This document shows positions 2,794 to 50,132 of a stretch of 64,000 nt of DNA, one piece after another. The notes under the pieces were generated by a model. That model saw nothing but the letters and a program-made list of their open reading frames with translations. It was not told the DNA's origin and searched no databases. Each line of letters opens with the position of its first letter. Position 1 is the stretch's first letter. Origin of the DNA: a phage. The stretch lies in sequence record OZ346219.1; one strand, 5' to 3'. The translations under genes and the position numbers were made by a program.

Positions 2794-3156
2794 TTATCGC
2801 CCGATCTGATATTTCTCGATCAGCGTCCACTCTTCTTTCTGTTTGAAAGACAGTACACGGAAATTATTAACTTCGGTAGTTTCAAAATCACTATCAATCA
2901 GGGTACACAGATTCCACTGCGCCAGAAGTTTTGCAATGTTATTACGGCGTAATTCATCTTCCCACGTCATTTTAACACTACGACCATCTAATTTCAACAA
3001 CTCCTTGAAATGAACGATGTAATAGCGCCCCTTCTTCTGGAGAATATGACAAGACTGATACAGTGTCTTGTCTCGATTGTTGGCAATGCCGCAGCGGGTT
3101 AAAGTCTCCTTAATTTTAAGGAAGTTTTCAGGACTAATCAAATTAATTTCAATCAT
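2794..3156 (-). CDS. regA: RegA translational repressor
   Basis: 120 aa; KETLTRCGIANNRDKTLYQSCHILQKKGRYYIVHFKE matches recalled T4 RegA; sits between 62 and 43 as in T4. Confidence 0.85.
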   Translation of the reverse strand: MIEINLISPENFLKIKETLTRCGIANNRDKTLYQSCHILQKKGRYYIVHFKELLKLDGRSVKMTWEDELRRNNIAKLLAQWNLCTLIDSDFETTEVNNFRVLSFKQKEEWTLIEKYQIGR

Positions 3157-3157
3157 T

Positions 3158-3736
3158 TTACCACCTTTCTATAATCTTTTTAAGTCGTTTCCTTTCTGTC
3201 TGATTCTTAGTAACACCCGCCAAAAGTTCATCGGTCGCATACGGTTTAATGTGCTTCAATAACTTGTCCATATATCCCTTTTCATTAGCCAAATCGAGAT
3301 AAAACCGGGCGTCATCCATATTTACACAATATGCTTTCGCCACTGCCATTAAAACCAATTTTTGGTCCAATTCTTCTGTTAGTTTAGCCCATTTACCGTA
3401 TCGTTTCCCCTTAGAAATACTCTGTAAGAGATAATCAAAATGCATTTGATCTGGGAGGCCATGACCGATTAAATTCATCACATACGCGCTATATAGGCAA
3501 TCTGCGTGCTGGGAAAGAGCGGTGTTAATCCATCTCTGGTTATATGCAGAATTGTTTCCCACATTAACGCGCTGTTTATCTAAGGTGATATGATCCATCA
3601 GAGCAAATAATGCATTGTCGGTTTTCTCGGTGAATGTATCCGCTAATTCAGACACCTTTTCCCAATCACGAGAGCGCCATGCAATTTCATGCTCGTTTAA
3701 TTGTGTATCATCTTCACCGAAAAATTGACCTAACAT
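3158..3736 (-). CDS. 62: Clamp-loader small subunit (gp62-like)
   Basis: 192 aa; KRYGKWAKL and C-terminal KRLKKIIERW match recalled T4 gp62; start overlaps gene 44 stop. Confidence 0.8.
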   Translation of the reverse strand: MLGQFFGEDDTQLNEHEIAWRSRDWEKVSELADTFTEKTDNALFALMDHITLDKQRVNVGNNSAYNQRWINTALSQHADCLYSAYVMNLIGHGLPDQMHFDYLLQSISKGKRYGKWAKLTEELDQKLVLMAVAKAYCVNMDDARFYLDLANEKGYMDKLLKHIKPYATDELLAGVTKNQTERKRLKKIIERW

Positions 3737-4710
3737 TATACGAACTCCAATTCAACCATTAATTGCATTAACAAAAAGACAATGTGAATCTCTTTATCAG
3801 CCGCGTGTGCAAACATCTGATTATTTTCACCGATAATCTCGGTCAGACGGATAATCGACGCTGGCTTAACTTGAGTATACAACTCATTATAAAGTTTCTT
3901 GACAAATTGAGCGTATGTATTGGTATATCGCGGTGCAAGTTTACGCACATTAGCAAACTGTTTAGTTTTAAGTGCTTCCACCACATCTGTTACTTCGGTA
4001 TTGCTACTTTCGATAACCATGCTCAATACGCCAGCATCAATTTTGCCATGTTTAGCGTAGCGATCCAAAAGTTTCATTACGCGCCGGAAGTCTGGGAAGT
4101 TCTGCTTAACCAGTTCCGCTAATACGCGCATTTCTTCTACTGGCACACCTTCTTTATCAAGAATTGCTTTACACCGGACGATCATTTCTTTCATCATGCG
4201 AAGCTGATCATCTTTAGTCGGAGATCCAAACGTGATGGGGTCAAATCGAGATCGTAACGCTGGGATAATACCTTCTAGATCGTTTGCTGTGATAATGAAT
4301 GTCACGTTGTTTGAGTATGCCTCAGAGAAACTACGCAAGTGTCTTTGAGCATCAGCTAGCCCCGCTCGGTCATACTCATCGATAATAACAACTTTGCCTT
4401 TTTCTCTTTTTTCTTCATCGAGTGATACACTCTGCGCAAAGCGTGTAATCTCATCGCGGATAAAATCAATCTTACAATCTGCGCCGTTAACAAACAGATA
4501 ATCAACACCCACATCTTCGCAAAGCGCCTTAGCAACGGTTGTTTTACCAGTACCTGGCGATGGGCTATGCAGGATCATAGAAGGGATTCGGCCTTGCTTA
4601 ACAATCTGCGCGAAGATCTTTTTATCTGCTTCCGGCAGAATACATTCAGAAATTGATTTCGGACGGTATTTCTGTTCCCACTGAAACTCATTTTCATTAA
4701 CACTCAGCAT
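3736..4710 (-). CDS. 44: Clamp-loader ATPase (gp44-like, RFC family)
   Basis: Walker A SPSPGTGKTT, Walker B VIIDEYD; aligns to recalled T4 gp44; ATG 4710 with GAGGTGA SD (track start 4725 is GTG). Confidence 0.9.
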   Translation of the reverse strand: MLSVNENEFQWEQKYRPKSISECILPEADKKIFAQIVKQGRIPSMILHSPSPGTGKTTVAKALCEDVGVDYLFVNGADCKIDFIRDEITRFAQSVSLDEEKREKGKVVIIDEYDRAGLADAQRHLRSFSEAYSNNVTFIITANDLEGIIPALRSRFDPITFGSPTKDDQLRMMKEMIVRCKAILDKEGVPVEEMRVLAELVKQNFPDFRRVMKLLDRYAKHGKIDAGVLSMVIESSNTEVTDVVEALKTKQFANVRKLAPRYTNTYAQFVKKLYNELYTQVKPASIIRLTEIIGENNQMFAHAADKEIHIVFLLMQLMVELEFV

Positions 4711-17554: not shown

Positions 17555-18094
17555 TCAAAGGTCGCGATATAGTACATTATGAAAATGAGAACTTGCATTA
17601 CCAATATTGTAGATAATAAATTCTTCATCCGGCGCTTGCGCTACAAATTGAGTATGAGCAACCGCCACAACCTTAAAAATACGATCCGTGATCTTGTGTT
17701 TAATTTCTGCCCCTACTTCCATAGGAACATATTCATTTGTTTCTGTTTCAGTCGCAAAACAGCCATCTTCTTCATAAGCACGAACAAATCGATCGCAATC
17801 AGTACGCTTAACAAATTCAAGAGTATACAATTCTCGTGAATTGTCGGTATAGACCAATACAGAATTATTATGATAGCGAATCACATACAGGTTATTATCA
17901 TCGTCAATTACGCAAAAGCTACGGATTCCTTCGCCTTTACTCCAGCAGATATTAACCACCGTTCCTCTAATAAAAAAACTTTCCTTTAAATTAAAACTAG
18001 TCAATGTGCTAGCGTGCATTTTAACAACAACACCATCGCCAATTTCCAGTTTACGAAGTTTAACTTCTTTGTTCAGTACACAAAACATCATCAT
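17555..18094 (-). CDS. Hypothetical protein
   Basis: 179-aa ORF; GAGAGGA SD; first gene after promoter 18124-18151. Confidence 0.45.
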   Translation of the reverse strand: MMMFCVLNKEVKLRKLEIGDGVVVKMHASTLTSFNLKESFFIRGTVVNICWSKGEGIRSFCVIDDDNNLYVIRYHNNSVLVYTDNSRELYTLEFVKRTDCDRFVRAYEEDGCFATETETNEYVPMEVGAEIKHKITDRIFKVVAVAHTQFVAQAPDEEFIIYNIGNASSHFHNVLYRDL

Positions 18095-18123
18095 GTTGTC
18101 CTCTCGTTGTTTTCGATGTGAGC

Positions 18124-18151
18124 ATTATACATTAGCTAATCATGTTGTCAA
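18124..18151 (-). promoter_or_regulatory. Sigma70-like early promoter
   Basis: Minus strand TTGACA-N16-TATAAT immediately after the nrdD terminator. Confidence 0.6.
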
Positions 18152-18159
18152 CACCCCAA

Positions 18160-18190
18160 AACGAAAAAGCCGACCCTTTCGGATCGGCTG
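18160..18190 (-). terminator. Rho-independent terminator after nrdD
   Basis: Minus strand GCCGATCCGAAAGGGTCGGC then TTTTTCGTTTT. Confidence 0.65.
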
Positions 18191-18194
18191 AAAT

Positions 18195-20057
18195 TTACAT
18201 GTGCTTAACGCGGTTTACCATCTCGGAGTGTTTCCCGTGGTTGAATGGACGCAGATCAACAGATCCAAGATATCCACTAACGCGACGGATAACATTCATC
18301 TTTTCCAGATTGTCATTACCGCAATCAGGACAAACAAAACCAGACTCGGTCGCTCTCATTTCCTTAGTAGATCCGCATACATGACATACATCAGAAGGAG
18401 TATTAACACCGAAGTAGTGCAATTTATCCATTGCATAGTCTACTACAGTTTCAAGACCTTTCAGGTTGTTTTTCATGTCTGGGAACTCAACATAAGAGAT
18501 CATGCCACCGGACGCCAGCCAGTGATAATCTTTCTCAAAGTCAATTTTCTCAAATGGAGTGACTTTCCGGTCTACGTCAAGGTGGAATGAGTTGGTGTAC
18601 CAGTCTTTATCGGTAGCACCCTTAACAATACCAAATTGCTCTCGGTCCAGTCGATTAAATCGATAGCAAAGGCTCTCGGCTGGAGTGCCGTAAAGACTAA
18701 ACCCAAGTCCGGTTTCGTCCTTCCATTTTTCAGTATAATGACGCAAGATCTTAAGAATATGTTTACCGTATCGCTGCGCATCTTCCGAATCAAACGGATG
18801 AACACCAAACAGGACGCTCAATACCTCATGTAAACCAATATATCCAAGAGAGATACTAGCGCGACCATCTTTCAACACTTCCAAAATTTCATCGTTTTGA
18901 TGAATACGGAAAAACGCACCTTCGGTATACAGCACCGGAGCAACATTGGCTTTAGCCCCTTTTAAAGCGTCTACGCGACTCATGAGCGCATCAAAGCAAA
19001 TAGGCATACGATTGGCTAGCTCTTGTTCGAATAGCTCAATTCTGCGCATTACAGACGCTTTACCAGCACGACGCGCGGCAATAAGGGCAATACGCGGAAG
19101 ATTCAGGGTCACAACACCCAAGTTATTACGTCCGTCTAATACTTCTTCGCCTTTCTCATTATGCCACACACCCAGGAAGCTACGACAACCCATCGGGCTA
19201 ACCGGAACACTAGATCCGGTGATACTACGGTTATTCTTCGCAGAGATATAATCAGGGTAAAGACGCTTACTAGAACATTCCAATGCAAGTTGCTTAATGT
19301 CGTAGTTCGGATCTTCCGGTTTAAGGTTTAATCCTTCTTCTAAGAACATCACCAGCTTAGGAAACACCGGAGTGATACCATCTTTACCTAAACCTTTAGT
19401 TCGAACGTTCAGGATCGCTTTCTGAATCAGTTTTTCTTCCCAGCTAGTACCCATACCAAAGGTTAAAGTCACAAAAGGCGTTTGACCGTTGGTGGAGAAC
19501 AAAGTGTTGATTTCATATTCCAACGCTTGATACCCGTCTAAAGTTTCTTTTTCTGTCTTCTCTTGTGCATAGAGAGTATCAGCTTTGATTCCGTAGGTTT
19601 CGGCATCAGCAAGGTGTTTATGATATGTTTTCTCAACATACGGTGCTAACACCTGATCGATGTTTGCGATTGTGGTCCCGCCATATTGATGACTTGCCAC
19701 CTGTGCGATAATTTGAGCGGTTACAGCACAAGCAACGCCGATTGATTTCGGACTTTCGATTTGTGCGCTACCCAATTTAAAACCATTCTCTAACATGTCT
19801 TTGAGATTAACAAGACAGCAGTTAGTAAACGGCATAGCGGGTGCATAATCCATATCATGATAATGAATGTCACCGTCTACATGCGCTTTATAGATGTGCT
19901 CAGGTAACACGGTTTTAGCAATCTGTTTAGACACAGCACCAGCAATCAGATCTCGACGTGTCGGGAATGTTCGCGCGTCTTTGTTCGCGTTCTCTTTGCT
20001 TACTTCGTTTTCTTTACCCGTTGCGATCTCTGTAATGTCTTTGATTAGTTTTTCCAT
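18195..20057 (-). CDS. nrdD: Anaerobic ribonucleoside-triphosphate reductase (class III)
   Basis: 620 aa; C-terminal CPDCG zinc site and glycyl-radical region (RVSGYLG); uninterrupted; AGGTGA SD. Confidence 0.95.
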   Translation of the reverse strand: MEKLIKDITEIATGKENEVSKENANKDARTFPTRRDLIAGAVSKQIAKTVLPEHIYKAHVDGDIHYHDMDYAPAMPFTNCCLVNLKDMLENGFKLGSAQIESPKSIGVACAVTAQIIAQVASHQYGGTTIANIDQVLAPYVEKTYHKHLADAETYGIKADTLYAQEKTEKETLDGYQALEYEINTLFSTNGQTPFVTLTFGMGTSWEEKLIQKAILNVRTKGLGKDGITPVFPKLVMFLEEGLNLKPEDPNYDIKQLALECSSKRLYPDYISAKNNRSITGSSVPVSPMGCRSFLGVWHNEKGEEVLDGRNNLGVVTLNLPRIALIAARRAGKASVMRRIELFEQELANRMPICFDALMSRVDALKGAKANVAPVLYTEGAFFRIHQNDEILEVLKDGRASISLGYIGLHEVLSVLFGVHPFDSEDAQRYGKHILKILRHYTEKWKDETGLGFSLYGTPAESLCYRFNRLDREQFGIVKGATDKDWYTNSFHLDVDRKVTPFEKIDFEKDYHWLASGGMISYVEFPDMKNNLKGLETVVDYAMDKLHYFGVNTPSDVCHVCGSTKEMRATESGFVCPDCGNDNLEKMNVIRRVSGYLGSVDLRPFNHGKHSEMVNRVKHM

Positions 20058-30433: not shown

Positions 30434-30832
30434 TTAAGACAGTCGAGTGAGTTTATAAATTGTTTTAAAACATAGAGCTTTGATATCGTCTAAAACGCTC
30501 TGTAACGAGCTATCAACATCATTATAAATCTCACTAGCCATTTGCGTTAACTCTTGCAAATAGGCAATTTCGCTAATCTCCTTGCGGACGACCAACGTTG
30601 GCTGATAACGACCAGTGATCCCAATATTGGTTTCAGTGAAATCATCAACCAATTCTTGCATTTCAAGATAGAACTCTTCTAGAGCCTTATGTTTTGCATA
30701 AGATCCAGGACCAGTTACCCCAAAATGCGCAGAATGCATATAAGTAACACTCATCAGACATTCACCGATAAAGCGGTCAACTTTATTAGCTTTCCCCTCT
30801 TCGGACGTCTTTAGAAAATCAATGAATTTCAT
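30434..30832 (-). CDS. Possible Dps/ferritin-like protein
   Basis: 132 aa from ATG 30832 (GGAGAA SD); YMHSAHFGVTGPGSYAKHKALEEFYLEMQELVDDF resembles the Dps helix-A/B signature (AHWNMRG..F..HE....); call is motif-level only. Confidence 0.35.
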   Translation of the reverse strand: MKFIDFLKTSEEGKANKVDRFIGECLMSVTYMHSAHFGVTGPGSYAKHKALEEFYLEMQELVDDFTETNIGITGRYQPTLVVRKEISEIAYLQELTQMASEIYNDVDSSLQSVLDDIKALCFKTIYKLTRLS

Positions 30833-31121
30833 GTTCTCTATTCTCCATATTATGCAACATAACAAACTGTTGTGCGGCATATTCCCCCATAATAAAACAC
30901 TGCTTAGAATCCATACATTTACTACGAGCATACATCTTCATAATATGGGCATGAAATTTCTGGCTGGTTTCAATGGAAGGAGATATTTTGTTTACATATA
31001 CTATCATTGCACCGTCGAAATAATCAGTAAAGTCACCAGTTGGATCATATTGATCAGCACTGACACTTCCGACCGCAGTCAAGCATATTGCCGCTGTTAG
31101 AGTTTTACGAATAAATGACAT
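30819..31121 (-). CDS. Secreted/periplasmic small protein
   Basis: 100 aa; N-terminal signal-peptide-like MSFIRKTLTAAICLTAVGSVSA; overlaps next gene start by 14 nt. Confidence 0.4.
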   Translation of the reverse strand: MSFIRKTLTAAICLTAVGSVSADQYDPTGDFTDYFDGAMIVYVNKISPSIETSQKFHAHIMKMYARSKCMDSKQCFIMGEYAAQQFVMLHNMENREHEIH

Positions 31122-32941: not shown

Positions 32942-33301
32942 TTAGTCACGGGAAGACAACCCAGCCATAAAACGGCTTAACAGTGTGTCGCGATAAGCAA
33001 AGCATAATTGCTTATCAGGGGCAGTATCACACAGGTTACGTTTTGTTTTAGCAAAGCTGGCAATACTCAGATCCCACGCTCGATTTTTTCGTTTTTCGTC
33101 TCGACCTTGTTTGTATGCTTCATCAAGTTCGAGCGCGATAAAATCACTACACATGTTATCATCATCACAGAAAGTTTTAATGATCTTTTTGTTGATCTCA
33201 AATCCTTTGTATTCAAACTTTGGATAAGGGCGCTCATTACTAGCAAGCGCACCAGCAGAGAACATCATAGCAATCATAGCAATTATTGTCAACTTTTTCA
33301 T
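32942..33301 (-). CDS. Secreted/periplasmic protein
   Basis: 119 aa; signal-peptide-like MKKLTIIAMIAMMFSAGALAS; GAGGAA SD. Confidence 0.45.
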   Translation of the reverse strand: MKKLTIIAMIAMMFSAGALASNERPYPKFEYKGFEINKKIIKTFCDDDNMCSDFIALELDEAYKQGRDEKRKNRAWDLSIASFAKTKRNLCDTAPDKQLCFAYRDTLLSRFMAGLSSRD

Positions 33302-33308
33302 ATATTCC

Positions 33309-33899
33309 TCAATAGCGTTTAGTCTTAAGAATGCCTTTACTCTTTAGATGGTTAGCCTTTTTTAGTACGTCATCAGCATAACCTAATCCGGCTTTATAGT
33401 TCCATCCAGCATTGTAAGAAGCTAGCGCGAGTCGGATATTACCGTTTCGAACATCCAGCCAGTATGCTAACTCATCCATCGCGTAGAATGCAGAAACCTC
33501 GCGATTCATGATAAAGTTGATAGTCTGGCGATCACTCATTTTAACACCGCGCTTTGCATTTTTCGCTTTCACCGTTTTAAGGTAATTTTGAAATAATCCA
33601 TAAGCATGATGATTTTTCTTTGGTGCTAAGTTTGCACCCGCGCTTGATTCTTGCCATGCGATACCCGCCAGGATGTGACCTAAACCCTTTCCGTTATAGC
33701 GAATATTCGGATGGTCCTTTTTCAACTTACCGCTTTTCTCGAATTGTTCGCCGTATTGATAGGCGAAATGTAAATTATCTAGTTGGTGTGCTGTAAAGTT
33801 GTCTATCGGCGCTTTTTTGATCGGTGCGCTAGTCGATGCGTGTGTAGCACCAACGGCTAGTGACAGACTCAATACTATCGCTTTTAGAACTTTTAACAT
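33309..33899 (-). CDS. Lytic transglycosylase (SLT domain) with signal peptide
   Basis: 196 aa; signal-like N-terminus; SLT motifs IAWQESS, YGLFQ, SYNAGWN; AGGAGA SD. Confidence 0.65.
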   Translation of the reverse strand: MLKVLKAIVLSLSLAVGATHASTSAPIKKAPIDNFTAHQLDNLHFAYQYGEQFEKSGKLKKDHPNIRYNGKGLGHILAGIAWQESSAGANLAPKKNHHAYGLFQNYLKTVKAKNAKRGVKMSDRQTINFIMNREVSAFYAMDELAYWLDVRNGNIRLALASYNAGWNYKAGLGYADDVLKKANHLKSKGILKTKRY

Positions 33900-33984
33900 T
33901 AATTTCTCCTGTTTGGCTTAACTTTCTGATTCCATAATATAGCCATATCACCAGAAAGTCAAGCATTATTTTAACCAATCTCCA

Positions 33985-34407
33985 TTATTGGTCTACCTTC
34001 AAAACAACAGCCGACATTTTACCCGCCAGTCGTTTTGGATTCTCTATAATCATTCGGCAGCATAGACCGTGATATGGCTTACCCTCTTCGATTAGATCTA
34101 CTGTCATCCCGATCCACATGTTACCGTCAGTAATTTCTAATCGATTCGGTCGGTCTTCCATTTTCAGGAAGTCGAAGATCTCCGGCAAACGAGTTTCTAT
34201 CTTATTGAATAGTTCCATTGTCTTATGTTCATCGATATGACGATCGGTTAGACGGTCGATCATATGCGGACTAAAGCGAATGAAAATATACTCACCATAA
34301 CCATCATTCAAGCACTTTTCTTTGATCTTCGCATTGGTTTTGCGCATTTCGGTTTCGAAGAATCTACGCAGCTTACTACGGCGAACATGTACGTTAATTG
34401 TTTCCAT
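33985..34407 (-). CDS. Hypothetical protein
   Basis: ATG 34407 with AAGGA SD. Confidence 0.4.
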   Translation of the reverse strand: METINVHVRRSKLRRFFETEMRKTNAKIKEKCLNDGYGEYIFIRFSPHMIDRLTDRHIDEHKTMELFNKIETRLPEIFDFLKMEDRPNRLEITDGNMWIGMTVDLIEEGKPYHGLCCRMIIENPKRLAGKMSAVVLKVDQ

Positions 34408-34411
34408 TTTA

Positions 34412-34747
34412 TTATCCTTTCTTAAACAAATTGCGAATCCAGTATACAAACGGGATTTCTTTAAACTTGAATTTCTCTATAGTTAATTCTTTAGTAGCAA
34501 GATGAATACCATAAGCATCATGTGTCACGATATGCCATTTTCTATAGTCCAAATGTGAACAACCGTCTGGATCTAGGTTAATAAGAGTTTCTCGCTCACT
34601 AGGATTATTTTTCCACAATTTTGTAATAGGATCGCACATAATTCGACCTAGCGTACCATGAATAATCTCACAACGGTAAAGTTTTCCAGCAGTGAGATAG
34701 GCGCACCCGTCATAGTCGGTATAAACAAACACTTCTTTAACACTCAT
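34412..34747 (-). CDS. CSHL-family protein (long form)
   Basis: ATG 34747 with AAGGAG SD downstream of promoter 34776-34804; DPDGCSHLDYRKWHIV. Confidence 0.4.
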   Translation of the reverse strand: MSVKEVFVYTDYDGCAYLTAGKLYRCEIIHGTLGRIMCDPITKLWKNNPSERETLINLDPDGCSHLDYRKWHIVTHDAYGIHLATKELTIEKFKFKEIPFVYWIRNLFKKG

Positions 34748-34775
34748 TTTAATACTCCTTTGTTTCGATGGGGGT

Positions 34776-34804
34776 ATATTACTACCCCCGTTTTGTTGTG
34801 TCAA
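34776..34804 (-). promoter_or_regulatory. Sigma70-like early promoter with stem-loop over -10
   Basis: TTGACA-N17-TAATAT; GGGGGTA/TACCCCC hairpin. Confidence 0.5.
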
Positions 34805-35065
34805 CTACTTTTTCAAGATTTTTTTAATTGCGTTCCAAAGACCTTTATTCTCAGGTTGTTTTGGTTCTTCGATCAGTGTCCAGGTTCGACCGTCTAAGTG
34901 TGCGCAATTTTTAAGACAAATAAAAATCTGGTGTCCTTTATCATCACGGATATAACCACTATTCGCAAATCTTTCATGTGGTGTATATTCATACAGTGTA
35001 TTTGGTGTAATATACTTGCGGTTACTATAAGGTGTCATCACATACATCATGGTACTAACTCCCAA
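34805..35065 (-). CDS. CSHL-family small protein
   Basis: 86-aa track ORF; KNCAHLDGRTWTLI. Confidence 0.4.
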   Translation of the reverse strand: MGVSTMMYVMTPYSNRKYITPNTLYEYTPHERFANSGYIRDDKGHQIFICLKNCAHLDGRTWTLIEEPKQPENKGLWNAIKKILKK

Positions 35066-35241
35066 CGATCACCGCGAAGATGAGAACATCCACCATCAAG
35101 AAGGATCGTAATACGATAACCTATATCATCTTTGATGTAACCGATTGTCGGTGGATTTTCGTAGTCTCGTGTCGGGGTAAAATCATACATCTTTCCTGGC
35201 GTAATATCTTGTCCTTTATTGCTATTGGTATAAACTTTCAT
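35047..35241 (-). CDS. CSHL-family small protein
   Basis: 64-aa track ORF; DGGCSHLRGDRWELV. Confidence 0.4.
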   Translation of the reverse strand: MKVYTNSNKGQDITPGKMYDFTPTRDYENPPTIGYIKDDIGYRITILLDGGCSHLRGDRWELVP

Positions 35242-35262
35242 TTTCTTAATCTCCTATATTAA

Positions 35263-35709
35263 CTAACCACGGGTATAGTGTTCCAGAACAACGGTCAGAT
35301 GAATATATTCTAATAAATCTTTCCAAAAGTCAACATCTGGTTCTTCCGGCATACCGTTTTTCTTTGCCTCTTCACGAGCGAGTTTAACCCGCTCGTAGAG
35401 ATCTTTCAATTCTTCCCGCACATTATCAAAGGTTCTTTCTCCTAACTTACACGCTAAAATAGAAGAACGTCGCGCGAGCGGGAATTGTAGATCACCTGTC
35501 TGATAGATTTCAAGTAGCTGATAACCAACACGCAGAGCATGAGAAAGATCTTTCCAGTTACTGAAATACTTTTCAGATTTGGCTACCTGCTTTTTGAGAT
35601 AGCCAGACAAACCCCACATACCAACATGATAGAATTTATCTCGATGTGTTCGGATGTATTCCCATTCTCTGGAGGATTCAATCAACATGTTACTAGGAGC
35701 GTGCACCAT
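35263..35709 (-). CDS. Hypothetical protein
   Basis: 148-aa track ORF; no SD at either candidate ATG; 5' end overlapped by HNH gene. Confidence 0.35.
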   Translation of the reverse strand: MVHAPSNMLIESSREWEYIRTHRDKFYHVGMWGLSGYLKKQVAKSEKYFSNWKDLSHALRVGYQLLEIYQTGDLQFPLARRSSILACKLGERTFDNVREELKDLYERVKLAREEAKKNGMPEEPDVDFWKDLLEYIHLTVVLEHYTRG

Positions 35710-36140
35710 GTCAATTTAGCCATGTGATGCATTTCACCCCAACATTTATTAAGACCTGTCTCTTTAGCATGAATGAGATTTTCAGATTTGCTAGTCCATT
35801 CCAAATTATACAGGTCAAAATTTCTTTTGTTTCCATCCTTATGATTCACTTCCGGCAAATTATAAGGATTCGGTATAAACGCAACAGCAAGAACTCTATG
35901 CATATTTAAAGTTTGCTTTATTCCTAACGGTCGGTTACGAACAGTAAACTTTGCATAGTTGTTAGTCTCAGGAATCCATATAGAAATAAGATTACCGCTT
36001 TTCTTATTCCTGATTTTACCATAAGAACTAACTTCAAACAAGTCTATCGGGTGAAAATAATCAATAACTTTCCACTCTTCATCATGGTCATCACAATATC
36101 GTTTCACATCATACCCTCTTCTATAAAAACTTAAAAACAT
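35682..36140 (-). CDS. HNH homing endonuclease
   Basis: VNHKDGNKRNFDLYNLEWTSKSEN HNH core; ATG 36140 without SD, directly after terminator 36151-36183. Confidence 0.75.
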   Translation of the reverse strand: MFLSFYRRGYDVKRYCDDHDEEWKVIDYFHPIDLFEVSSYGKIRNKKSGNLISIWIPETNNYAKFTVRNRPLGIKQTLNMHRVLAVAFIPNPYNLPEVNHKDGNKRNFDLYNLEWTSKSENLIHAKETGLNKCWGEMHHMAKLTWCTLLVTC

Positions 36141-36150
36141 AATATCAGAT

Positions 36151-36183
36151 TTTATAGAAAAGGGCAACCCCTAAAGGTTGCCA
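36151..36183 (-). terminator. Terminator after the peptidase gene
   Basis: Minus strand GGCAACCTTTAGGGGTTGCC then CTTTTCT. Confidence 0.5.
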
Positions 36184-36189
36184 CATAGT

Positions 36190-36579
36190 TTATTTTGGAT
36201 CTTGGTATTTGCTGTGTGGTAGCTGAAAATGAACACCGTCTTTAAACGATACCCAATCCCCACCCCATTCAACAGGAACACCCAATTCTCGACCAGCTTG
36301 TTTAAATGCATCAGCGATCATGCGGTAGTATTTCATGTTCCATGTATCCTTATCTTTCGGATACGCCACAACGTCAACCGCGAAACCGTGAAGATGACGA
36401 GATTTCATAGTCTTAGATTTACCTTCCGCAACATATTTCTTTTGCGTTTCTAGACTACGCACACCTTCCGTAATACCAAAATCGACCGGAGTCAGTTCTA
36501 ATGCACGATGAACGACTTTTACCAGGTCTGGATGTACACCAACAAGCCGATCTTTGCTTCTTTGAGATAATTTAAACAT
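36190..36579 (-). CDS. L-alanyl-D-glutamate peptidase (M15-type endolysin candidate)
   Basis: 129 aa; SKDRLVGVHPDLV and HLHGFAVDV typical of zinc D-Ala-D-Ala carboxypeptidase/VanY-like phage endolysins; AGGGGGTGA SD. Confidence 0.7.
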   Translation of the reverse strand: MFKLSQRSKDRLVGVHPDLVKVVHRALELTPVDFGITEGVRSLETQKKYVAEGKSKTMKSRHLHGFAVDVVAYPKDKDTWNMKYYRMIADAFKQAGRELGVPVEWGGDWVSFKDGVHFQLPHSKYQDPK

Positions 36580-36607
36580 TATTCACCCCCTTTGTGAGTG
36601 ATAATAT

Positions 36608-36799
36608 TTAGATTCCGGCGATCCTGCATAGAGTTCTTGTATTAGCACCAATAAGGATAGCATTAACGACAACCATTCCCCAATCAACCCACTGATTATT
36701 ATAAATGCTAAACCCGTTTGCAAGACCAAATACAAGCATTCCGGTACACATACTCAGAGCAATAATCAACATCACGGTAAAACCAAATGCAAATCTCAT
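36608..36799 (-). CDS. Small membrane protein
   Basis: 63 aa, two predicted TM helices; AAGGA SD. Confidence 0.4.
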   Translation of the reverse strand: MRFAFGFTVMLIIALSMCTGMLVFGLANGFSIYNNQWVDWGMVVVNAILIGANTRTLCRIAGI

Positions 36800-36800
36800 A

Positions 36801-37016
36801 TTATTTTCCTTTTCTCTGTTTACGTTTATAAAAGTAATACATTACCTCATCGCGTCCAGTGACCCAACATGCTATGGCAGTAAACAGGTTTACAATTCCC
36901 AACACACCTACGGATGCGGCGCTGTCAACAGACATAGGAACAGTAAAGGCCATAGCTAACATAGCAACACCACAAATGACATTAAGCACCATTATAATAA
37001 GACCGAAGAAAACCAT
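36801..37016 (-). CDS. Small membrane protein
   Basis: ATG 37016 with GGAGG SD; hydrophobic core, basic C-terminus. Confidence 0.4.
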   Translation of the reverse strand: MVFFGLIIMVLNVICGVAMLAMAFTVPMSVDSAASVGVLGIVNLFTAIACWVTGRDEVMYYFYKRKQRKGK

Positions 37017-37018
37017 TG

Positions 37019-37210
37019 TCAATCCTCCGACACAAGAAAACCAACAATCACGCCAGTGATAATACATGATGCGCCGCTAATAAGACAACCCGCGCCAAGT
37101 GATTCCCACCAGATCAGAGAAGCGACAATAACACAGAATCCCCAGACTACCGCAATCACAACATAGGCAAGGGTCGCCCAAAACATATATTTGTTCATAA
37201 TAAATCCCAT
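37019..37210 (-). CDS. Small membrane protein
   Basis: 63-aa track ORF; start uncertain (37210 or 37198). Confidence 0.35.
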   Translation of the reverse strand: MGFIMNKYMFWATLAYVVIAVVWGFCVIVASLIWWESLGAGCLISGASCIITGVIVGFLVSED

Positions 37211-37383
37211 TCACCAAACAAATAAGAAAAAAGCCATATCAACAGAAACGAGGCAATTGATCCGGCAAGCAAAATGATATTAGAGAATCCGCCGTCTATC
37301 CAGGCGACAAAACAGAATACGCCAGTATAGAAGCATAAACCCAGTACAAAGCATACTATAAGCAACCATAGACAAAACGCCAT
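37195..37383 (-). CDS. Small membrane protein
   Basis: 62-aa track ORF, hydrophobic. Confidence 0.35.
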   Translation of the reverse strand: MAFCLWLLIVCFVLGLCFYTGVFCFVAWIDGGFSNIILLAGSIASFLLIWLFSYLFGEWDLL

Positions 37384-37605
37384 AGAAAGCCCTCCAGTGA
37401 GCTAATTTAGTGCGGGTAGTACATTACCCTACCCGTATTGTTAATCAACGCAGAGCTTCTTCTAGCGCGATCCCAAACCATCCACAAACAACGCCCATAC
37501 AGACAGCTACAAGAAGATTCATTCTCTCTTTAGGGATCATTGCAATCATAACAACAACCATACAGAAAGCCATTACCATTGAAGTTAACATTTGTTCAAC
37601 CATTA

Positions 37606-37944
37606 TCACACCTTTAAAGTCATAGACGCATAAACATTAATGCCAGGCCAGTTAGGATCGCAATTATACTCAACATCCCACAAATAAAGCGGTTTAGATG
37701 TATCAGCCAAGTTTTTAAAATCTTCCACCCACATTTCAAGGCTATATGATGGATAAACTAGGCTATCATATCCGCCGTAACGTTGGCCTACTGGTCGGTC
37801 AGTAAAAACTACCTCAAGATCCGGTAATTCTTTTTCAAGGATAACCGCCAGCGCATAAATCAGACGGTCTTCCTTGTTACGCTGCCGAAGGACCGTTGTC
37901 AGTTGGTTTTTCTGGTTCACTAGCAAGCACCTCCACATTTTCAC
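37606..37944 (-). CDS. Hypothetical protein
   Basis: 112-aa track ORF; overlaps upstream ORF by 68 nt, start uncertain. Confidence 0.3.
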   Translation of the reverse strand: MKMWRCLLVNQKNQLTTVLRQRNKEDRLIYALAVILEKELPDLEVVFTDRPVGQRYGGYDSLVYPSYSLEMWVEDFKNLADTSKPLYLWDVEYNCDPNWPGINVYASMTLKV

Positions 37945-38197
37945 AGAATGAAATTTTCACAGACACAATTTTACCATAAGTGAAGAATGAATATACATTA
38001 TCGAGATATTCAACGTCGCCTACAATCACATCAAACTGCGGATCAGCAACCGCCGCAACATATTCTACCAGTTCATCAAGAGAATGCAACTTAATTTCAT
38101 CAATTCGGCTGTATTTGGTTGCATCTTTAATTTTAAAACCACGTTCTTTCAGTTTGTCAATCAGAATTTCACGCGGAGTTTCAAACAGTTTGCTCAT
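37877..38197 (-). CDS. Hypothetical protein
   Basis: 106-aa track ORF. Confidence 0.35.
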   Translation of the reverse strand: MSKLFETPREILIDKLKERGFKIKDATKYSRIDEIKLHSLDELVEYVAAVADPQFDVIVGDVEYLDNVYSFFTYGKIVSVKISFCENVEVLASEPEKPTDNGPSAA

Positions 38198-38218
38198 AAT
38201 ATAATCCTCACATTAAAT

Positions 38219-38419
38219 CTAAAATTTGTTAACGACGAATTGCATAATTAGACTAATCACAAACATTGCAAACCAAGTATAAATGCAACAGATAAAAGCT
38301 ACATACAATTCAATCTGGTCAGAGAATACACCGGGTAAAAGCATTAGCAAAATAACAACAGTAAAGACGCTAGCGATACCCGCAACAAAACCAATATCAT
38401 TTTTACTAATCGTCATCAA
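38219..38419 (-). CDS. Small membrane protein
   Basis: 66-aa track ORF, hydrophobic. Confidence 0.35.
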   Translation of the reverse strand: MMTISKNDIGFVAGIASVFTVVILLMLLPGVFSDQIELYVAFICCIYTWFAMFVISLIMQFVVNKF

Positions 38420-38625
38420 GTCACCGTTTTGTAAAGAAACACAATAAAATCCAAGACAAGAAAGACAGTGTAAATGATCATCGTCAAGACAGTAAACACT
38501 GTCAAATTTTCATCGTTAGTTAATTCATAGTCGCCCATCCATACAATCACAAGATATAGCATTGAAAGAATGGAAGCACCTACGAAGTTAAAAAACATAT
38601 TCTTGAGCGTCATATTAACAACCAT
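38416..38625 (-). CDS. Small membrane protein
   Basis: 69-aa track ORF, hydrophobic. Confidence 0.35.
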   Translation of the reverse strand: MVVNMTLKNMFFNFVGASILSMLYLVIVWMGDYELTNDENLTVFTVLTMIIYTVFLVLDFIVFLYKTVT

Positions 38626-38797
38626 CGCGGCTTAAGTCAACAGCAATTGCATACAGCATAATGAATATGCTAGCAGATCCGAGAATCAATACACCCTCAC
38701 ATTTTGAAACTCGCTCATCAAAATGTAACATTATCCATCCGAGGATGTTAAAGGCGCAGACCGCGCCTATGTTCGCTAACCAATTAATCTTTTTCAT
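38615..38797 (-). CDS. Small membrane protein
   Basis: 60-aa track ORF, hydrophobic. Confidence 0.35.
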   Translation of the reverse strand: MKKINWLANIGAVCAFNILGWIMLHFDERVSKCEGVLILGSASIFIMLYAIAVDLSRDGC

Positions 38798-46542: not shown

Positions 46543-47016
46543 CTATTTGTTAAGACCTTTAAAGCCAAACACTTTCTTTAATGCATGTTCGGTGATGATC
46601 TTAAACTCCATGTTATGCTTTTGGCATAATTTCACGGCAGCTAACCATTTTTCAGTATTTTTTGTGTATGTCCATACTTCATGCATATATCGTTGCTTTG
46701 TCTTCGCGGTCATTCTTTTTGGCTTTTCCGGTGGCCTTGTCTCTTTAGCTGGTTTAACTTCCCATAAATGCTCCTTGCCATCATCAAACTTAACGTAAAA
46801 ATCCATAAAGTATCTGTGTCTTTTCCCGTCTGTTGATGACTCATAAGGAATTACTACGGTCTCAGATCCCCATTTTGCAACTCTAGGATTGCGGTCTAAA
46901 AATTTCATTATATGTAATTCCCAACTTGACCTGTAGACGATTTTTTTCAGGTCGCCTTTATACTTCTCCGGGTTTTCAGGTCTATATTTACCCTTATATG
47001 TGTTGCAATTACCCAT
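46543..47016 (-). CDS. Putative head completion protein (gp4-like by synteny); PD-(D/E)xK-like motif
   Basis: 157 aa (T4 gp4 ~150 aa); AAGGTGG SD; FMDFYVKF...HLWEVKP resembles a D...E.K nuclease motif. Confidence 0.45.
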   Translation of the reverse strand: MGNCNTYKGKYRPENPEKYKGDLKKIVYRSSWELHIMKFLDRNPRVAKWGSETVVIPYESSTDGKRHRYFMDFYVKFDDGKEHLWEVKPAKETRPPEKPKRMTAKTKQRYMHEVWTYTKNTEKWLAAVKLCQKHNMEFKIITEHALKKVFGFKGLNK

Positions 47017-47711
47017 TATACCACCTTCTTCTTGCAGTTGTCACCATGCCATCTAACATAATTTCCCTGATTGGCTGTTTTTCCACAATGAGGACAGGTG
47101 AAATACGGACGAGACTTTGACAATTCACTATATTTTTGTTTCATTTCTGGCGTGTTATGAATACGTTTCCATTTCTCTACGTTTTCTTGTGACAACTTTC
47201 TACCCTTACCCGCTTTAGAGATGTTGTCTCTCCATTCTTGTGTAATTTCTCTTGACGCAATATTTCTTTTATGTTCTTCTGTAAACACTCTACCTTTTAA
47301 TGAAGCAGATAATTTCTGTCGATGTTCCTCAGATAATTTAATTCCTTTTCTCTTTCCTTTAGTTGCTTCTGATATTCTGCGTCTAGTCTCTTCGGATCTT
47401 TTTCTTCCTGTATGAAATTTTCTTGAAGTCTCGACCGCAAGTTTTCTTACCCACTCAAATTGTTTATTGTTATAGTTGGTAGACCCCATCAATATTTTCG
47501 CCGCATGTACAATTCCGTGATGTGTTGGATGCATTTTTGCTAAAAGTTGATGAGCAACAAAATGTTCAGACCCCGTTAACTCAACTATATTTTCTGGACT
47601 ATCATCACCTCCCATACAACGAGGAATAATATGATGTTTTTCTTTATATCCTTCAAGCGTTCTATGCTTTGCGCGTTCAATTAATCGATCATAATGTTTT
47701 TGATAGTCCAT
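47016..47711 (-). CDS. HNH homing endonuclease (Mob-like) with basic repeat region and zinc finger
   Basis: 231 aa; HHIIPRCMGGDDSPENIVELTGSEHFVAH HNH core; repeated basic G[KR]..SEEH[KR] motifs; C-terminal CPHCG; divergent from gene 53 and shares its leader through a 14-bp inverted repeat. Confidence 0.75.
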   Translation of the reverse strand: MDYQKHYDRLIERAKHRTLEGYKEKHHIIPRCMGGDDSPENIVELTGSEHFVAHQLLAKMHPTHHGIVHAAKILMGSTNYNNKQFEWVRKLAVETSRKFHTGRKRSEETRRRISEATKGKRKGIKLSEEHRQKLSASLKGRVFTEEHKRNIASREITQEWRDNISKAGKGRKLSQENVEKWKRIHNTPEMKQKYSELSKSRPYFTCPHCGKTANQGNYVRWHGDNCKKKVV

Positions 47712-48332: not shown

Positions 48333-50132
48333 ATGCTAATGTTTAATAACTCCGTTAAATGGTTTACCGGAATTGTAGAAAACAGGGAAGACCCGTTAAT
48401 GCTGGGGCGTGTTCAGGTTAGGATTCATGGTATACATCCCTCGCTATCCGCGCACGGTGACATTCAAGGTCTTCCAACAGAAGATCTATTATGGATTACG
48501 CCAATACAAGATATTACAAGCGCGGCGATCTCCGGTATAGGTCAAAGCCCTACTGGTATTGTTGAAGGTTCAATGGTATTTGGTTTGGCTTTAGATGAAC
48601 GTTATTTAAACTGCGTTATTCTGGGTACTATTGCCGGACAATATACAGAGAAACCACTCACTACAGAAGGTTTTTGCGACCCTTCTGGTGCATATCCTCG
48701 TTATATTGGTAATGATGTTAATATTCTTGCTCGTGGCGGTATTAACCCAGAAACCGGACAAACAACAAAACCTGATAGTGTCTATATTCGAGATGAAAAC
48801 ACTGGAGTTGCAGTAAATCCAGACGACGAGCCATTAGACCAAATTCCGGTTGATGATAATCCTGATTTTACAATAGAAAAAATGCTGCGGGGCGATGAGG
48901 GATATCGCGAGAAATGGTATCTTGATTCAGAAGGATATCCGACAATAGGCATCGGGCATTTGATCATTTATAAGAAAACCAGTGATCTTGGTATTATCAA
49001 TAATGAACTTTCTAAGCTGGTAGGGCGTGAAGTTACAAACGGAAGACTTACCGCCGAAGAAGTTAGTAAAGTATTTGCTGACGATATAGAAAAGACTCGT
49101 CGTGATATGCGCAAACATCCACGAATTGCACCTGTCTATAATAAATGTAATGCCTCACGTCGTATGGCATTAGAAAATATGGCGTTTCAAATGGGTGTTG
49201 GAGGATTGGGTAAATTTAAGAATAGTCTTGCTGCGATGTTAGCGGAAGAATGGAAACAAGCCTATGATGGATTACGTCAATCGGTATGGGCTAACCAAAC
49301 TCCAGGACGCTCCAGCCGTGTTTCTAAAATTATTTTAACTGGTAACTTAGAATCATATGGCGTAATTGCTCCAAAGAAAGAGGAATCAATTTCGGATGAT
49401 CCGCGAGCACGTTTGAGAAATGCCCGTATTGCTGCCTATAAGACGCAGAGAGCAGAAGAAGACCCAGAAGCACCGTTTACCCCACAAGACACACGAATCA
49501 TGTTTAAAGAGCCTAAGAGTTCGTATTCTGCGAGGTATCCTTATAACCATGTGTACGAGTCAGAGAGCGGTCATATTATCGAGATTGATGATACTCCTTC
49601 TCATGAGCGATATCATCGCAAACATCCTTCTGGTACATTTGAAGAAACCAGACCGGACGGAACGAGGGTAGAAAAGATTGAAGGCGATGATTATCTGATC
49701 GTTAAACAAGGCCGGAAAGTAAACGTTAAGGGTAATTTGCAAGTTGTTGTTGAAGGTGACGCGCAAGTTTATTATATGGGTAATGTGATGCAAACCGTTG
49801 ATGGTAACGTCACGGAATTTATTCGTGGTAATGTTAATCAGACCGTTGAGGGTACAGCTAATATGCATGTTGTAGGTGATGTTACCGCTCAACTTGACGC
49901 TAATTTAACGGCTAATGTCAAGGGTAATGCTGAATTAATGATCGAGGGCAACACTACCGAAACAATTAAAGGTAACTATGATTTAACCGTTGAGGGTAAT
50001 TTTAATATGACCGTCAATGGCACTAAATCAGATCAGGTTAATGGTGACTGGTCCCGTAATTGTGGTGCAAGCGTTAAAGATATTGCATCTGGTACAGTTA
50101 AAATTGATGGTAGCCGTATTGATCTTGGGTGA
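48333..50132 (+). CDS. 5: Baseplate hub/tail lysozyme gp5
   Basis: 599 aa; OB-fold N-terminus, lysozyme motif EGYPTIGIGHL, C-terminal beta-helix repeats; AAGGTGA SD. Confidence 0.9.
   Translation: MLMFNNSVKWFTGIVENREDPLMLGRVQVRIHGIHPSLSAHGDIQGLPTEDLLWITPIQDITSAAISGIGQSPTGIVEGSMVFGLALDERYLNCVILGTIAGQYTEKPLTTEGFCDPSGAYPRYIGNDVNILARGGINPETGQTTKPDSVYIRDENTGVAVNPDDEPLDQIPVDDNPDFTIEKMLRGDEGYREKWYLDSEGYPTIGIGHLIIYKKTSDLGIINNELSKLVGREVTNGRLTAEEVSKVFADDIEKTRRDMRKHPRIAPVYNKCNASRRMALENMAFQMGVGGLGKFKNSLAAMLAEEWKQAYDGLRQSVWANQTPGRSSRVSKIILTGNLESYGVIAPKKEESISDDPRARLRNARIAAYKTQRAEEDPEAPFTPQDTRIMFKEPKSSYSARYPYNHVYESESGHIIEIDDTPSHERYHRKHPSGTFEETRPDGTRVEKIEGDDYLIVKQGRKVNVKGNLQVVVEGDAQVYYMGNVMQTVDGNVTEFIRGNVNQTVEGTANMHVVGDVTAQLDANLTANVKGNAELMIEGNTTETIKGNYDLTVEGNFNMTVNGTKSDQVNGDWSRNCGASVKDIASGTVKIDGSRIDLG

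Follow-up and report, generated by a model that had tools for sequence, protein, structure and literature searches.

How does a T4-type phage without a free-standing gene for T4 lysozyme (e) degrade the wall of its host, and what is the HNH gene beside one of its wall-degrading enzymes? The question is raised by positions 33309 to 36579 of a 64,000-nucleotide (nt) stretch of phage DNA from sequence record OZ346219.1 (the window), for which an original prediction, made from the letters alone, described a secreted SLT-domain protein and an M15 peptidase with an HNH gene next to it in place of e. The window is 64 kb of the phage genome, and statements on genes outside it are drawn from close relatives. 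The locus is an ordinary one, with a lysis gene set that has been published for Krischvirus, and the sole peculiarity of this genome is a microhomology deletion that truncates the HNH gene. The standard Krischvirus lysis set, a conserved Vs.1 protein, and the remnant of an HNH cassette left by one 1560-bp deletion together very probably explain the whole arrangement.

In a megablast search, the flagged region (33000-38000) matched 59 phage records with 90-99% identity, all of which are Krischvirus. These T4-type, "pseudo-T-even" coliphages include RB49, Phi1, JSE, GEC-3S, ECD7, and their relatives. Over its full length, the window aligns with positions 16517-83190 of the complete 164.7-kb ECD7 genome at ~95-98% identity. 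Judged by these alignments, the source phage is a Krischvirus, an RB49/JSE/ECD7-like T4-type coliphage. Every gene of the flagged region is carried by the minus strand.

The M15 endolysin and its lysis partners

The features related to lysis are as follows.

36190..36579, minus strand: endolysin, a predicted Zn-dependent L-alanyl-D-glutamate endopeptidase of family M15C (129 amino acids [aa]; Pfam, PHROG, and PDB matches)
30819..31121, minus strand: rI antiholin, a lysis-inhibition regulator (Pfam PF24205 Antiholin, E 1.6e-23; rI in the RB49 and ECD7 annotation)
48873..49358, plus strand: lysozyme domain of the baseplate hub protein gp5 (tblastn; the matching ECD7 gene is annotated gp5)
36608..37383, minus strand: four small open reading frames (ORFs) of 63, 71, 59, and 62 aa, with two predicted transmembrane (TM) segments each (orthologs of RB49 ORF103c-106c; hydrophobicity)

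The 129-aa ORF matches Pfam Peptidase_M15_4 (E 6.6e-12; 46.3 bits versus a cut-off of 25) and the phrog_465 endolysin (E 9.6e-68), and PDB entries 8q2g and 23ri align to it over residues 1-129 with ~97-98% identity (E ~3e-84; 3-4 mismatches), which bears out the description of this protein as L-Ala-D-Glu peptidase-like. Entry 8q2g is the structure of LysECD7 (PMC11267749). H62, D69, W109, D114, and H117, comprising the Zn-binding H-x6-D...H triad, the catalytic Asp, and the conserved Trp, are all found in the window protein. The roles of the Zn-ligand and catalytic residues are those defined for EndoRB49, the lytic activity of which has been measured (PMC10487532) and which cleaves L-Ala-D-Glu, as shown on a glycopeptide mimetic (PMC8140593). 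On the strength of these matches, the M15 L-Ala-D-Glu peptidase is the endolysin of this phage lineage and an ortholog of EndoRB49 and LysECD7. For RB49 and ECD7, biochemical and structural work has already demonstrated that an M15 peptidase replaces T4 e (PMC10487532, PMC8140593, PMC11267749), and the M15C enzyme of the window would represent the same known non-orthologous replacement. A peptidase of the LysECD7 type is already used in engineered antimicrobials (LysECD7-SMAP).

The endolysin gene has a Shine-Dalgarno (SD) sequence, GGGGGTG, in front of its ATG, and a hydrophobicity scan of the protein found no hydrophobic segment, no signal peptide, and no TM segment. In the holin-endolysin-spanin model, an endolysin lacking an export signal depends on a holin. 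The M15 enzyme has no export signal and therefore needs a holin to reach the murein; as a cytoplasmic Zn2+ enzyme, it would gain access to the murein only once a T4-type holin T permeabilizes the inner membrane.

A tblastn search with the T4 lysozyme sequence found a single matching region in the window, the gp5 domain (43% identity over 162 aa; E 1.3e-37). When the complete ECD7 genome was searched, gp5 alone was matched, and no free-standing e was found. These searches uphold the predicted lack of an e homologue besides the gp5 lysozyme domain. It had also been proposed to look for e and holin t elsewhere in the genome, which was done on the relative ECD7: e is absent, and holin t is present by annotation (156630-157286), as are rI and the PseT.3/PseT.2 spanins. 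In relatives, the genes for holin t and for both spanins fall outside the part of the genome covered by the window. The presence of rI in the window indicates T4-type, T-holin-controlled lysis. By analogy with the relatives, this particular phage would also possess holin t and PseT.3/PseT.2 and would release its endolysin in a T-holin-dependent manner.

Four small membrane proteins precede the M15 gene, as had been described, each with two hydrophobic segments. They fall into PHROGs 15016, 15232, 16151, and 19354, all of which are without known function, and no paralogy was detected among them (all E >0.01). The homologous endolysin genes of Klebsiella phage RCIP0006 (without a classification in its record, probably Slopekvirus-like) and of a Bragavirus phage have no such genes upstream. 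The four proteins are genus-restricted. They belong to a longer series: within 2.2 kb upstream of the endolysin, the minus strand carries eight small ORFs (36608-38797) of 52-71 aa, each with two predicted TM segments. No paralogy is detectable among the eight, and the five that were scanned against PHROGs (36608-37603) belong to families of unknown function.

Vs.1 and its neighbor Vs

The second wall-degrading enzyme comprises the following features.

33309..33899, minus strand: Vs.1 ortholog, a predicted secreted GH23/SLT-like muramidase or lytic transglycosylase (196 aa; SLT, phrog_600, T4 orthology)
33837..33899, minus strand: predicted cleavable Sec signal peptide of Vs.1, residues 1-21, MLKVLKAIVLSLSLAVGATHA, followed by S (sequence, hydrophobicity)

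The 196-aa ORF matches the Pfam SLT domain (E 6.6e-6; 26.1 bits versus a cut-off of 21.3), and its N terminus resembles a signal peptide, in agreement with the original prediction of an SLT-domain protein with a signal peptide. A PHROG search places the family in phrog_600. The leader consists of the n-region MLKVLK, an h-region of ~12 residues, and a cleavage site between THA and S, with no lipobox Cys. This composition fits a cleavable Sec signal, and the h-region appears too short for a signal-arrest-release (SAR) or TM anchor. The motifs of the domain are WQES, containing the catalytic Glu84, G101-L-F-Q104, and S161-Y-N-A-G165. E84, S86, G101, F103, Q104, S161, Y162, and G165 are invariant across 20-21 homologues, and N163 is nearly so. 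The E-S, G-x-F-Q, and S-Y-N-A-G motifs are the signature of family-1 lytic transglycosylases. The AlphaFold (AF2) model, the underlying alignment of which left out the T4 row, has a pLDDT of 84 and a pTM of 0.77, with residues 2-17 helical and residues 21-28 disordered. A Foldseek search of the model against the PDB gave Pseudomonas aeruginosa MltD, Slt, a goose-type lysozyme, and a GH23 chitinase as top matches, with probabilities of 0.98-1.0. A search with the Vs.1 sequence against PDB sequences gave chance-level matches alone.

The protein is not peculiar to phages without e. It shares 52% identity with T4 Vs.1 over residues 35-192 (E 5e-44). In the RB49 and JSE annotations, the ortholog of 33309-33899 is vs.1, placed between regB and vs, and the T4 gene order, regB-vs.1-vs-macro domain (tk.4)-tk, matches the synteny of the window, RB49, and JSE. 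Homologues were detected by tblastn in 2086 phage records spanning Straboviridae, Ackermannviridae, and Felixounavirus, including T4, RB69, Klebsiella and Aeromonas T4-like phages, Kuttervirus, and Felixounavirus. The N terminus of T4 Vs.1, MRKALLAGLLAISMMAHS followed by SEH, is also signal-peptide-like, and an N-terminal hydrophobic leader occurs in every aligned homologue in which the N terminus is present, as well as in the Felixounavirus and Kuttervirus proteins. As far as these N termini indicate, the signal peptide is a family-wide property, T4 included, and no adaptation to the loss of e.

These comparisons change the reading of the gene. The SLT protein had been thought to be present instead of e; it is an ortholog of T4 Vs.1, and T4 carries e too. 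Since the two proteins coexist in T4, Vs.1 is no replacement for e. In addition, the presence of vs.1 does not enable T4 e mutants to lyse, and Vs.1 is therefore not a sufficient endolysin. The suggestion that the signal peptide serves holin-independent export does not hold as an adaptation to the loss of e, since T4 Vs.1 has a leader as well. Sec export and muralytic activity of Vs.1 are nevertheless what its leader and motifs predict: the protein would be a Sec-exported, soluble periplasmic GH23 (SLT-like) glycosidase with Glu84 as the catalytic residue, encoded in the regB-vs.1-vs-tk block. A periplasmic role outside lysis is plausible, and Vs.1 may act on murein as an accessory enzyme in the periplasm. 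Its resemblance to SLT proteins has been on record since 2003-2006, and Nolan et al. described it for the vs.1 genes of six T4-like phages in 2006 (PMC1524935); on Vs.1 function, nothing was found in the literature beyond this comparative-genomics note.

The gene that follows vs.1 is the following.

32942..33301, minus strand: vs ("valyl-tRNA synthetase modifier"; phrog_1256, RB49 annotation; 7 nt downstream of vs.1)

By hydrophobicity, the Vs N terminus is also signal-peptide-like, both in the window (MKKLTIIAMIAMMFSAGALA followed by S) and in T4 (MTKILVLCIGLISFSALA followed by D). The two genomes differ slightly in arrangement, with T4 vs (2973-3314 of the T4 sequence L009) overlapping vs.1 by 8 nt. 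An exported Vs is hard to square with the modification of a cytoplasmic aminoacyl-tRNA synthetase. It is conceivable, if rather doubtful, that Vs.1 and Vs form a periplasmic murein-remodeling module with a non-lysis role, such as blocking superinfection, modulating lysis inhibition, or resisting lysis from without. If such a module exists, the label "valyl-tRNA synthetase modifier" becomes questionable for an exported Vs.

The HNH remnant and the 1560-bp deletion

Between the endolysin and nrdC.11, the window carries the following features.

36163..36182, minus strand: intrinsic-terminator-like hairpin, GGCAACC TTTAGG GGTTGCC, then CTTTTCT (directly after the endolysin stop codon)
35716..36184, minus strand: surviving part of an HNH cassette, made up of the cassette terminator, a short leader, and the first three-quarters of the HNH gene (98% match to contig L017, contiguous)
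35682..36107, minus strand: truncated free-standing HNH homing-endonuclease gene with NUMOD4 and HNH_3 (Pfam, identity to protein cluster P0053, junction analysis)
35706..35715, minus strand: deletion junction, the single surviving copy of a 10-bp direct repeat, ATTGACATGG (megablast blocks versus contigs L016-L022; repeat positions in L017)
35263..35709, minus strand: nrdC.11 remnant (RlaP-family nucleotidyltransferase), codons 85-232 only (148 aa; phrog_388, homology of relatives)

The ORF at 35682-36140 matches Pfam HNH_3 and NUMOD4 (E 1.8e-7 and 1.3e-6). No SD precedes its ATG at 36140, whereas GAGGG is found 6 nt ahead of an in-frame GTG at 36107, and the full-length homologues of cluster P0053 start at the matching GTG (VKRYCDDH...). 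Both the hairpin and the HNH gene of the original prediction are real, and the gene was called SD-less because the wrong start codon, ATG 36140, had been chosen; an SD exists, and the ORF is truncated at its 3' end. In annotation, GTG 36107 should be given as its start, and the ORF should be marked as truncated. Codons 1-134 are 100% identical to the 175-aa P0053 protein (95% of the query) and are followed by a 7-residue out-of-frame tail, CTLLVTC. The resulting 141-aa protein is without the last 41 residues (codons 135-175), which putatively bind DNA, whereas all 14 members of the P0053 cluster are 175-186 aa long. The 176-aa JSE homing endonuclease (EpJSE_00101) shows 60% identity, and its homology stops at "...AKLT", after which the window protein ends in "WCTLLVTC" and a stop codon.

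The comparison of the locus with and without the HNH gene, which had been suggested as a check, was carried out in the relatives and revealed a precise insertion of the cassette. Segment 35716-36184 is absent from RB49, ECD7, and 57 other phage records, and it shows ~69-71% identity to the HNH gene of JSE and phiS. In eight ENA/Logan Krischvirus contigs, the gene order is endolysin, P0053, vs.8, a 36-41-aa ORF, vs.6 (Gly_radical), and nrdC.11 (RlaP). In these intact relatives, the insertion point of the cassette is directly behind the endolysin stop codon, and the HNH stop codon is followed by the native RB49 terminator. The cassette is polymorphic at this precise site, being present in contigs L016-L023 and absent in RB49 and ECD7. 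This arrangement makes the hairpin at 36163-36182 part of the HNH cassette rather than the native terminator of the endolysin.

The window aligns to contigs L016-L022 by megablast in two blocks that overlap by 10 bp. In L017, ATTGACATGG occurs at positions 4393 (HNH codons 131-134) and 5953 (nrdC.11 codons 83-86), 1560 bp apart. The window keeps one of the two repeat copies; therefore, 1560 bp were deleted. The lost segment held HNH codons 135-175, vs.8, a 41-aa ORF, vs.6, and nrdC.11 codons 1-84. Relative to the phages without this cassette type, homology to RB49, G37-3, JSE, and phiS stops at 35715 and resumes at 36185 (36236 for JSE and phiS), and 469 bp in the window replace 1427 bp of RB49, consisting of the 5' 246 bp of nrdC.11, vs.6, ORF100c, and vs.8. 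The full-length P0053 gene directly follows the endolysin in the relatives, and one 1560-bp deletion therefore explains the locus. An alternative with two deletions relative to the JSE arrangement, in which the HNH gene would come from the slot between vs.6 and nrdC.11, was dropped, since the 100% identical P0053 directly follows the endolysin in the ENA/Logan contigs.

In the proposed mechanism, a single deletion between the 10-bp direct repeats would have fused HNH codon 134 to nrdC.11 codon 85. It would have taken the presumed DNA-binding tail of the HNH protein, vs.8, the 41-aa ORF, and the glycyl-radical cofactor gene vs.6, together with the N-terminal 84 codons of nrdC.11, where the nucleotidyltransferase active site is expected. 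The nrdC.11 remnant has no SD, and its match to the phrog_388 nucleotidyltransferase is confined to profile positions 239-339; the intact 232-aa nrdC.11 protein matches RlaP at residues 7-191, and most of that match is missing from the remnant. The HNH gene is a decayed homing-endonuclease remnant and no functional neighbor of the endolysin, and both the HNH and nrdC.11 remnants are, as far as their missing parts suggest, most likely inactive. The 148-aa ORF at 35263-35709 should be flagged in annotation as an nrdC.11 remnant.

Nearly the same genes have been lost elsewhere. A JSE-like Logan contig (SRR9866666, L010) has, in its part 3678-4473, an independent deletion from vs.8 codon ~111 to nrdC.11 codon ~78, with the 5-bp microhomology GGCGA, the right end of which lies 6 codons, about 18 bp, from the window junction. 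The two near-coincident ends may reflect a hot spot or selection for keeping the 3' part of nrdC.11 or downstream expression. Another Logan contig (SRR17241629, L011; 939 bp) starts inside the 10-bp repeat, 2 nt before the ATG of the 148-aa remnant, which would fit a graph branch at this repeat in a different sample and is uninformative alone. All six T4-like genomes in the comparison of Nolan et al. (PMC1524935) contain vs.6, a GrcA-like glycyl-radical cofactor gene. The deletions imply that at least two independent Krischvirus lineages can do without vs.6, vs.8, and nrdC.11.

Two homing-endonuclease slots lie ~1.1 kb apart in this part of the genome (JSE sequence L003, 3326-3856 and 5004-5579; L016-L023, ~4001-4528). 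The post-endolysin slot holds an AP2-type HNH gene in JSE and phiS or the NUMOD4-HNH P0053 in the metagenomic relatives and the window. The slot before nrdC.11 holds a 60%-identical NUMOD4-HNH gene in JSE and phiS and an unrelated HNH gene in G37-3. Contig L023 has HNH genes in both slots, the second one before nrdC.11. Further differences from ECD7 in homing endonucleases lie elsewhere in the window. A 231-aa HNH endonuclease ORF (HHIIPRCMGGDDSPENIVELTGSEHFVAH; 47016-47711, minus strand) is immediately upstream of the gp4 homologue (46543-47016), and the ~800-bp segment carrying it is missing from ECD7, in which the alignment jumps from 66783 to 66898. The DNA polymerase gene of ECD7 is split by an HNH endonuclease gene (ECD7 18166-18990), and the window, at ~1509-1518, is without this ~1.1-kb insertion, with the alignment jumping from ECD7 18025 to 19147.

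Alternative readings and comparison with known systems

Two other readings would assign more of the locus to lysis. Vs.1 could be a second, holin-independent endolysin, exported by Sec before lysis, taking a material part in host lysis, and compensating for the missing e like a signal-peptide or SAR endolysin, and its predicted GH23 fold, invariant Glu84, and conserved N-terminal signal sequence would suit such a function, as would the annotation of Felixounavirus homologues as "lysin." However, the same signal-peptide protein is present in T4 and RB69, T4 also encodes e, and the lysis failure of T4 e mutants speaks against it. The h-region of ~12 residues with an AxA-type cleavage site provides no SAR anchor, and the gene is located in the regB/vs/tk block, away from the lysis genes. 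A lytic role for Vs.1 is thus improbable, all the more as the M15 enzyme is by itself an active lysin (PMC10487532). The Felixounavirus "lysin" was dropped as proof of an endolysin role, as it is a signal-peptide Vs.1-like protein beside rIIB and the annotation is merely a name. The proteins encoded by 36608-37383 could likewise form a holin/antiholin/pinholin set and, with the M15 peptidase, a self-contained lysis cassette. They look like class II holins in their length (59-71 aa), in having two TM segments, and in being encoded on the strand of the endolysin gene, 28 nt upstream of it. However, none belongs to a known holin family, and their four PHROGs lack a known function; relatives encode a T4-type holin t, an rI antiholin, and spanins; the homologous endolysins of RCIP0006 and of a Bragavirus phage are not preceded by such genes; and similar small TM ORFs extend 1.4 kb further upstream, to 38797, which is typical of T4-type early regions. 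A holin cassette was accordingly rejected as unsupported, given the lack of paralogy, the lack of synteny with M15 endolysins in other genera, and the T4-type holin, antiholin, and spanins in the genus, and we consider it very unlikely.

A third alternative concerns the deletion itself. The fusion of HNH and nrdC.11 could be an assembly or cloning artifact or a minority variant, with the real phage carrying an intact endolysin-HNH-vs.8-vs.6-nrdC.11 order. The junction was found in no other searched sequence, i.e., INPHARED phages, IMG/VR, JGI metagenomes, and a 15-billion-protein collection; exact junction searches gave 0 matches in IMG/VR and 0 in the JGI metagenomes, and the truncated HNH protein, looked up as an exact sequence from its ATG as well as from its GTG, had no match in the 15-billion-protein collection. 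On the other hand, a repeat of 10 bp is much too short to make a modern assembly collapse and is typical of slippage or microhomology deletions. The independent deletion of nearly the same genes in contig SRR9866666 marks the region as dispensable and deletion-prone, and the 939-bp contig SRR17241629 begins 2 nt before the same ATG. An artifact or minority variant therefore has very little probability, and a genuine 1560-bp deletion is preferred.

Several points weigh against the combined explanation of a standard lysis set, a conserved Vs.1, and a cassette remnant. Besides the absence of the junction from all of the searched sequences, the Pfam SLT score of Vs.1 is just 5 bits over its threshold, and its Foldseek matches have weak E-values (0.014-0.1) and TM scores of 0.4-0.5. 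No T4 late-promoter motif, TATAAATA, lies near vs.1: there is no site between 31162 and 40368 and 4 are found in the window versus ~6 expected by chance, the motif being that of T4, from which Krischvirus promoters may differ. For the genome beyond the window, it is close relatives that point to holin t and the spanins and to a lack of e. Finally, the truncated HNH domain could keep a non-specific nicking activity.

Among known systems, the M15 enzyme is closest to EndoRB49 and LysECD7 (23ri, 8q2g), with which it shares the length of 129 aa, 97-98% identity, the Zn ligands H62/D69/H117, D114, and W109, the genomic position in Krischvirus, and the absence of a signal peptide. It differs by 3-4 substitutions only (e.g., Q126 for P126), with no functional distinction of the window copy. 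EndoT5, the M15C enzyme of phage T5, is an ortholog of EndoRB49 and LysECD7 and is Ca2+ regulated, whereas the RB49-type enzyme is not (PMC10487532). The M15 peptidase and T4 lysozyme e (GH24) have the same role in the lysis pathway, that of a soluble, holin-dependent murein-degrading enzyme. However, the two have no sequence relationship, with the M15 enzyme cutting the L-Ala-D-Glu peptide bond and e the glycosidic bond.

Vs.1 resembles T4 Vs.1 in the signal-peptide-like N terminus, the E-S/G-x-F-Q/S-Y-N-x-G motifs, and the regB-vs.1-vs-tk.4 synteny, whereas the linker between its signal peptide and domain is ~15 residues longer and T4 Vs.1 coexists with lysozyme e. Compared with Slt70/Slt, MltD, and goose-type lysozymes (GH23), it has the same E-S motif with the catalytic Glu and a predicted fold that may be theirs, but the similarity is weak (Foldseek E 0.014; 19-22% identity), and both a lytic transglycosylase and a hydrolase are possible. 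In contrast to Slt70/Slt and MltD, Vs.1 is a minimal single domain of ~160 aa without LysM, superhelical, or lipoprotein anchor modules.

The HNH gene belongs with the free-standing HNH endonucleases of T-even phages (I-HmuI-like NUMOD4/HNH_3; JSE EpJSE_00101), which it resembles in its NUMOD4 and HNH_3 domains, its 60% identity to the JSE protein, and its presence/absence polymorphism at a precise intergenic site in near-identical genomes. Compared with the JSE HNH gene, the window copy breaks off at codon 134 of 175 and runs into the nrdC.11 remnant. The location also differs, as JSE carries its NUMOD4-HNH gene before nrdC.11, whereas the window type lies after the endolysin, where JSE has an unrelated AP2-HNH gene.

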